Assembly (NCBI RefSeq): GCF_030013205.1
Contig: NZ_CP122648.1
Length of the DNA: 64,000 bases
DNA from: Escherichia coli
Lineage (GTDB): Bacteria > Pseudomonadota > Gammaproteobacteria > Enterobacterales > Enterobacteriaceae
Direction: 5' to 3' (one strand)
Shown here one piece after another: positions 40,033 through 40,883 of this stretch. The translations under genes were made by a program, and so were the position numbers. The notes under the pieces are model-generated. The model worked only from the letters and a program-made list of their open reading frames with translations. It was not told the origin of the DNA and ran no database searches. Position 1 is the first letter of the stretch. Each line of letters opens with the position of its first letter.

Positions 40033-40883
40033 TTACCCCGCCCGATAAAACGGTTTATCCCCAAGGATCGTCGCCCGATGCATAATCCGCCGCTGTGGCA
40101 GGTAATCCGCATTGGCATAGTGCTGAGTCACGCGATTATCCCAAATCGCAATATCATTCGGTTGCCAGCGCCAGCGCACCTGAAACTCCGGTTTGGTGAT
40201 ATGGGCAAACAAAAAACTTAACAAGGCTTCGCTCTCTTTCTCGCTGACATCAACAATTCGCGTAGTAAAGCCTTCATTCACAAACAGCGCCTGTTTACCG
40301 CTCACCGGATGCGTTCGCACCACCGGATGTAGCAACGGCGGGTTTTTCGCGACCGCCTCGCGCCAGCGTTGATGCTCCTCCTCGGTTTTGCGGTATTTGT
40401 ATTCCGGGAACGATTTACGGAAATCATGCTCCGCACGCAGCCCGCTCAGCAGTTGGCGGAAGGGAACAGAGGCGCCTCATAGGCCGCAATACCGCTGGTC
40501 CAGAGCGTATCGCCGCCGGTCGAGGGTAACTCTTTTGCCGCCAGAATCGCCCCTGCGGGTGGCGTTTCAATAAATGTCACATCGGTATGCCAGTTGTCGT
40601 TATCCGGCGGATTATCGTTATGAGTATCCAGCACGATGATCTCGTCAACCCCTTCGGCATGAGGGTAAACAGGGTGAATATGCAGTTCGCCAAAACGCTG
40701 GGCCAGCGCGCATTGCTGCTGCGGCGTAATAGCTTGATCGCGCAGAAACACCACCTGATGGCGCAGCACCGCATGGTAAAGCTGTTCAAACTGATTATCG
40801 CTTAACGGGCGCGTCAGGTCGGCACCCGAAATTTGTGCGCCAATATACGGCCCCAGCGGGGTAATGCTCAGACGTTCACTCAT
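40033..40883 (-). pseudogene. tauD: taurine dioxygenase TauD, apparently frameshifted
   Basis: Two abutting ORFs (40446..40883, 145 aa; 40033..40335, 100 aa) together cover the 283-aa TauD sequence; the frame switches at ~40468-40472 (gag gcg cct ctg reads EAPL then stop, where an intact frame needs EALSVPF), consistent with a 1-nt deletion. Confidence 0.7.

Follow-up and report, generated by a model that had tools for sequence, protein, structure and literature searches.

The taurine operon and the frame break in tauD

The stretch of Escherichia coli chromosomal DNA analyzed here (64,000 nt of contig NZ_CP122648.1; hereafter, the window) carries the taurine operon tauABCD on its minus strand. 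The final gene, tauD, is convergent with hemB, which is encoded on the plus strand and ends at 39993, and the autotransporter gene ehaB lies beyond hemB. The features of the operon, all on the minus strand, are as follows.

40033-40883, minus: tauD pseudogene, 851 nt versus 852 nt, the final gene of tauABCD and convergent with hemB
40471-40472, minus: deletion site, from the alignment with the intact tauD of TUM14771 (position computed)
40446-40883, minus: truncated open reading frame of 145 aa, i.e., TauD residues 1-137 followed by PLFPSANC (translation)
40033-40470, minus: out-of-frame remnant encoding TauD residues 139-283, including His255 and Arg270 (translation)
40710-40712, minus: codon 58, TGC (Cys) versus CGC (Arg), clone-specific (sequence comparison and 60-nt query)
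40880-41707, minus: tauC, taurine ABC transporter permease, intact, 275 aa (ORF calls)
41704-42471, minus: tauB, taurine ABC transporter ATPase, intact, 255 aa (ORF calls)
42484-43446, minus: tauA, periplasmic taurine-binding protein, intact, 320 aa (ORF calls)
43447-43900, minus: region upstream of tauA with the operon promoter and regulatory sequences (sequence comparison)

When aligned with the intact TUM14771 allele, the window tauD showed a single gap, which on the coding strand reads GAGGCGC[T]CTCTG. The T that is lost (an A on the plus strand) follows gene nt 412 and lies inside codon 138 (CTC, Leu). The alignment thus bears out the 1-bp deletion proposed by the initial annotation, which had put the frame switch at about 40468-40472; the deletion maps between 40472 and 40471. 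The 145 C-terminal codons reported there were counted correctly, and the 138 N-terminal codons were right to within one codon, as they consist of 137 native codons and the codon that was hit. Translation of the shortened gene runs into a premature TGA at 40446-40448, eight out-of-frame residues past residue 137, and TauD residues 139-283 are encoded in a frame offset by -1, with amino acids identical to those of K-12. The break is a discrete difference from more than 5,400 intact orthologues and not a statistical pattern, and chance is therefore not an issue.

All three transporter genes are full-length open reading frames, in agreement with the earlier claim that tauABC is intact. Upstream of tauA, the 454-nt sequence is the same as in strain W13-16 and differs by one SNP (at -173) from that of TUM14771, in which tauD is intact. 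No operon gene follows tauD, and hemB is convergent, so that polar effects of the premature stop are not expected.

A separate difference was detected in TauA, where S105T (window 43132-43134, minus strand) is shared by the window and ETEC4079 and is absent from W13-16, TUM14771 and K-12. Residue 105 adjoins Glu106, a hinge residue that binds taurine at the amino group (PMC6906117).

Predicted consequences for TauD and taurine use

In full-length TauD, the match to the Pfam family PF02668 extends from residue 7 to residue 272. Of the 267 profile positions, the 145-aa product accounts only for 2-138, and positions 180-267 are matched by the final 100 aa of the C-terminal remnant. At the DNA level, homology to the TauD/TfdA family extends over the whole domain, with the two translated pieces 99-100% identical to K-12 TauD, but a continuous reading frame for the complete double-stranded beta-helix domain is lacking in the window. 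The iron ligands of TauD are His99, Asp101 and His255, and the taurine contacts include His70 and Arg270 (PMC9304159); solved structures of the E. coli enzyme are 1GQW, 1GY9, 1OS7, 1OTJ and 6EDH. The iron triad is no longer held in one polypeptide, as His99 and Asp101 are in the 145-aa product and His255 is found only in the remnant. Also missing from the truncated protein are Arg270, Ser158, Phe159 and Phe206. Because His255 and Arg270 are lost, the truncated TauD should be inactive, with an active site that presumably cannot form.

We also considered a split enzyme produced by re-initiation. An internal start for a useful C-terminal fragment was sought, and the only candidates were an ATG at residue 268 and weak TTG/GTG codons from residue 184 onwards. 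Any such C-terminal piece would lack residues 138-183, and this arrangement was rejected as implausible.

The tauABCD genes are induced only under sulfur starvation, when TauABC imports taurine and TauD releases its sulfur (PMC6906117). According to PMC12585060, citing Nishikawa et al. 2018, tauD-deficient E. coli shows no initial growth on taurine, and SsuDE-dependent escape mutants appear later. The ssuEADCB genes are annotated as intact in ETEC4079, the genome that best matches the window, and a slow SsuDE-dependent bypass is therefore genetically available. The initial annotation had suggested that taurine could be imported but not desulfonated. With tauABC intact and tauD broken this is a reasonable expectation, although slightly too absolute given the SsuDE route.

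Distribution of the deletion among E. coli genomes

To profile the deletion we used a reference collection of 5,426 complete E. coli genomes. The 881-nt tauD query had matches in 5,421 of these, with 100% identity over all 881 nt in 17 genomes; among the matches listed, the next-best extend over 882 nt. With a 60-nt probe that has the deletion at its centre, exact matches were obtained in the same 17 genomes (of 5,426) and in none of the other 5,409, and the remaining genomes that aligned with this probe across the site all did so via a one-base gap. The second change in the gene, R58C, has the same distribution, as a 60-nt query across codon 58 was exact in these 17 genomes only; residue 58 is Arg in K-12, TUM14771 and CFSAN018748.

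The hosts of the 17 deletion genomes are pigs or wild boar (Sus scrofa) throughout. The carriers are K_EC180 (Korea), W13-16 and P15-25 (France), EC556, EC571 and EC581 (Japan), and 11 ETEC-numbered strains, two of which (ETEC1748 and ETEC4079) were inspected and are from Belgium. All typed members belong to the O139:H1 ST1, Stx2e/F18 edema-disease clone; W13-16 and P15-25, for example, are O139:H1 ST1, Stx2e- and F18-positive edema-disease strains (PMC8798679). PacBio RSII data at 50x were obtained for these two, and short-read data at 80x for the isolates of that study (PMC8798679).

The 17 carriers match the window at ~100% identity in a 24-kb region around tauD. CFSAN018748, a swine isolate from Denmark, comes next, with 99.3% identity over the 24 kb and an intact tauD of 852 nt. 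Within the clone, a single T6/T7 run near 1183 is all that separates ETEC4079 from the window over 64 kb. The identity over 24 kb, taken together with the ST1 typing (PMC8798679), suggests that the deletion-carrying genomes are monophyletic. They represent one clone and one mutational event, not 17 confirmations of selective value.

Beyond the complete genomes, the exact 145-aa truncated product was found on 113 contigs in 150 index blocks of public assemblies, including many drafts and the 5.04-Mb contig UGEY01000001.1. Five further assemblies with DNA of the locus (L007-L011) were compared and have the same disrupted tauD. The deletion is fixed in the clone. The sequence-level hallmarks of a lineage-specific pseudogene were observed, i.e., a single indel at a syntenic locus, a premature stop, reproducibility in independent assemblies, and restriction to one probably monophyletic group.

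In the 24-kb region, ETEC1701, W13-16, ETEC4075 and ETEC4068 each gave a two-piece match with ~1.3 kb extra and an annotated IS3-family transposase. This indicates strain-specific IS insertions near the tauD region in those four members.

Origin of the frameshift

Given this distribution, we consider it very probable that tauD is a genuine loss-of-function pseudogene, whose codon-138 deletion arose once in the ancestor of O139:H1 (ST1) and was inherited by every sequenced member. In this porcine clone, translation ends eight codons past the deletion, leaving 145 aa of the Fe(II)/2-oxoglutarate dioxygenase fold, its N-terminal half. This fragment keeps His99 and Asp101 and, as it lacks His255, Arg270 and the C-terminal half of the TauD domain, would have no active site. 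Under sulfate starvation, import of taurine by TauABC would persist and the dedicated desulfonation step would be gone. Based on the sequence, we infer that the clone would not grow promptly on taurine as its only sulfur source, and at most slow SsuDE-dependent escape would be expected.

The three alternatives that deny a fixed loss of the gene have a negligible share of our confidence. The initial annotation had raised a sequencing or assembly error as the alternative; in that case the true genome would encode an intact tauD of 852 nt. Single-base indels are indeed the commonest type of assembly error, and one such indel, the T6 versus T7 run near 1183, separates the window from its best match ETEC4079 elsewhere. 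The same deletion, however, recurs in 17 complete genomes that were sequenced independently and originate from four or more countries, with PacBio used for at least two of these genomes, and the exact truncated product is present on the 113 contigs of other assemblies. Moreover, the deletion site, between GCGC and CTCT, is no homopolymer, and the deletion follows the phylogeny of the clone exactly and co-occurs with a clone-specific SNP in tauD. Sequencing error was rejected on the basis of the 17 exact probe matches and the 113 contigs and is next to impossible. As the 17 genomes are ~100% identical over 24 kb and the nearest outgroup is intact, the deletion is best regarded as a real mutation that arose once and was inherited. 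Equally close to nil is the probability that the gene is recoded rather than dead, with programmed -1 ribosomal frameshifting or transcriptional slippage restoring full-length TauD. The arrangement of the frames would permit this, as the C-terminal frame is offset by -1 and shares 31 nt (gene nt 408-438) with the N-terminal frame, so that a -1 shift would give a near-native TauD; the C-terminal 145 codons are also free of mutations. That the C-terminal part is unmutated is explained by the youth of the clone, whose members are ~100% identical over 24 kb. A scan of frame 0 for -1 slippery heptamers (X XXY YYZ) found none, whether within the 31-nt overlap or elsewhere in that frame, there is no A/T run at or near the site, and the only runs of at least 5 nt, at gene nt 537 and 668, are downstream of the premature stop. 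The two-frame arrangement is not conserved among orthologues in the 5,426 complete genomes; it is confined to one recent clone, versus more than 5,400 genomes with a continuous tauD, a pattern expected of a fresh mutation and not of a recoding signal shaped by evolution. Traces of full-length TauD could nevertheless arise by very rare, spontaneous -1 slippage of ribosomes. A reversible, phase-variable ON/OFF switch is hardly credible either. The intact allele does have a short CTCTCT tract at the site, but a contingency locus would need more than three dinucleotide units, and the change is -1 nt and not a repeat unit. No long homopolymer or multi-unit repeat was found at the deletion site, and no run of at least 5 nt is nearby. 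The OFF state was observed in all 17 complete genomes and in the five further assemblies, and the ON state in no member of the clone.

Neutral or selected loss

A different question is whether a real frameshift was selected in the pig edema-disease clone, as an adaptive loss, or became fixed without selection. Possible benefits include sparing the cost of TauD or of its sulfite and aminoacetaldehyde products, and retaining taurine, once imported, for use as a solute. Four observations would favour selection. The clone in which the deletion is fixed is successful and has spread globally; tauD has two changes specific to the clone, R58C as well as the frameshift; mhpT, another nutrient-scavenging gene within the 64 kb, is likewise shortened by 1 nt in these 17 genomes; and a draft genome of the clone has additionally lost ~329 nt from tauB and tauC. 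On the other hand, hitch-hiking is expected to fix neutral or mildly deleterious mutations in a clonal lineage, and the loss of tauD is a single event. Because tauABCD is expressed only under sulfur starvation (PMC6906117), it is probably rarely selected in the gut. The frameshifted ycbX and mhpT point to general background decay, and the substitution counts in the tau operon are too small for a dN/dS test; across tauA-D, compared with W13-16, TUM14771, K-12 and CFSAN018748, TauD R58C is the sole clone-specific substitution, and TauC R12H and TauB R64C are common to the window and the outgroup CFSAN018748. Selection for the loss of tauD is thus unlikely in our judgement. A broader version, in which the tauD loss, the mhpT frameshift and the later tauB-tauC deletion amount to selected streamlining for the weaned-pig intestine, with TauABC kept to import taurine for a non-sulfur use, e.g., as a compatible solute, is very unlikely. 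The mhpT shortening and the tauB-tauC loss hint at relaxed or negative selection and, equally, at drift in a clonal pathogen. We infer that the loss of tauD was a matter of neutral drift or hitch-hiking in such a pathogen and was not selected.

The mhpT gene (50561-51771, minus strand) encodes a 3-(3-hydroxyphenyl)propionate transporter, is 10 kb from tauD, and is annotated as 'frameshifted', with 1211 nt versus 1212 nt. The 17 clone genomes all carry the 1211-nt form, in contrast to the 1212 nt of the outgroups, and the adjoining mhpABCDFE genes are annotated as intact. The draft genome with the shortened transporter genes is GCA_900195485.1 (L009, contig FZGA01000020.1), in which the ~329 nt missing extend from the end of tauB to the start of tauC (~395-723 in L006 coordinates). 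The called products are 188 aa versus 255 aa for TauB and 261 aa versus 275 aa for TauC. This may represent further decay of the operon after the loss of tauD, or an assembly artefact. Outside the window, ycbX is annotated as 'frameshifted' in ETEC4079 (L015 3832-4942). In the same genome ssuE directly follows pyrD, two genes that in K-12 are presumably separated by the elf/ycb fimbrial genes.

Comparison with known systems

The K-12 TauD (b0368; 1GQW, 1GY9, 1OS7) is encoded at the same locus, with the order tauA-tauB-tauC-tauD, a convergent hemB, and then ehaB/yaiT. With the missing T restored, the window TauD equals that of K-12 at 282 of 283 residues, the exception being R58C. Unlike the K-12 gene, the window gene is 1 nt short at codon 138, and its product ends at residue 145. 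Among annotated sequences, the RefSeq PGAP pseudogenes KZW92_RS21605 (W13-16) and QDW55_RS19340 (ETEC4079) have the same sequence and deletion and are flagged as 'frameshifted'; the label 'taurine dioxygenase, frameshifted' was present in all four clone genomes inspected (ETEC4079, W13-16, EC556 and ETEC1748). Experimental counterparts are laboratory tauD knockouts such as BW25113 delta-tauD736 of Nishikawa and co-workers, with the phenotype expected here, i.e., no immediate growth on taurine and late SsuDE-dependent escape (PMC12585060). The delta-tauD736 allele is an engineered deletion, whereas that of O139:H1 is a natural frameshift with a predicted phenotype.

The pseudogene call itself is already known from RefSeq, and the term tauD was not found in any of the edema-disease or O139 papers listed by the literature search. 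What is newly added is the exact distribution, with the deletion and R58C in 17/17 clone genomes and in 0/5,409 others. The break is an ordinary lineage-specific pseudogene, one of many in a clonal pathogen, and has little general biological weight. As the two changes occur together in all 17 clone genomes and in none of the other 5,409, they are a possible clone-specific marker and could serve for PCR or in-silico typing of O139:H1 ST1. The predicted phenotype of the clone is that it would make no prompt use of taurine sulfur. More generally, doubts over single-base indels can often be resolved with independent assemblies of the same lineage.

Other features in the window

A hypothetical open reading frame of 485 aa (3207-4664, minus strand) was detected between acpH and malZ, a position at which K-12 is not known to have a gene. 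It is chromosomal in 1,127 of the 5,426 E. coli genomes, always annotated as hypothetical, and gave neither a Pfam hit above threshold nor a hit in NCBIfam or PADLOC. The T6 run mentioned above (~1183-1188) is just upstream of the start of tgt (minus strand) and is T7 in ETEC4079; differences in homopolymer length are typical of sequencing error or of real slippage.

The autotransporter adhesin gene ehaB (35545-38493, minus strand) is intact and encodes 982 aa; in K-12, an IS3 element splits the corresponding gene, yaiT. Two gene remnants are annotated as incomplete, one of the PIG-L deacetylase family (44056-44418, plus strand), which is missing its C-terminus and is at the position of K-12 yaiS, and one of a DUF2773 gene (20840-21178, minus strand), which is missing its N-terminus. 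An IS200C-family tnpA (8332-8790, minus strand) is located between proY and brnQ, and a second copy encoding the same TnpA protein is near aroA in ETEC4079.
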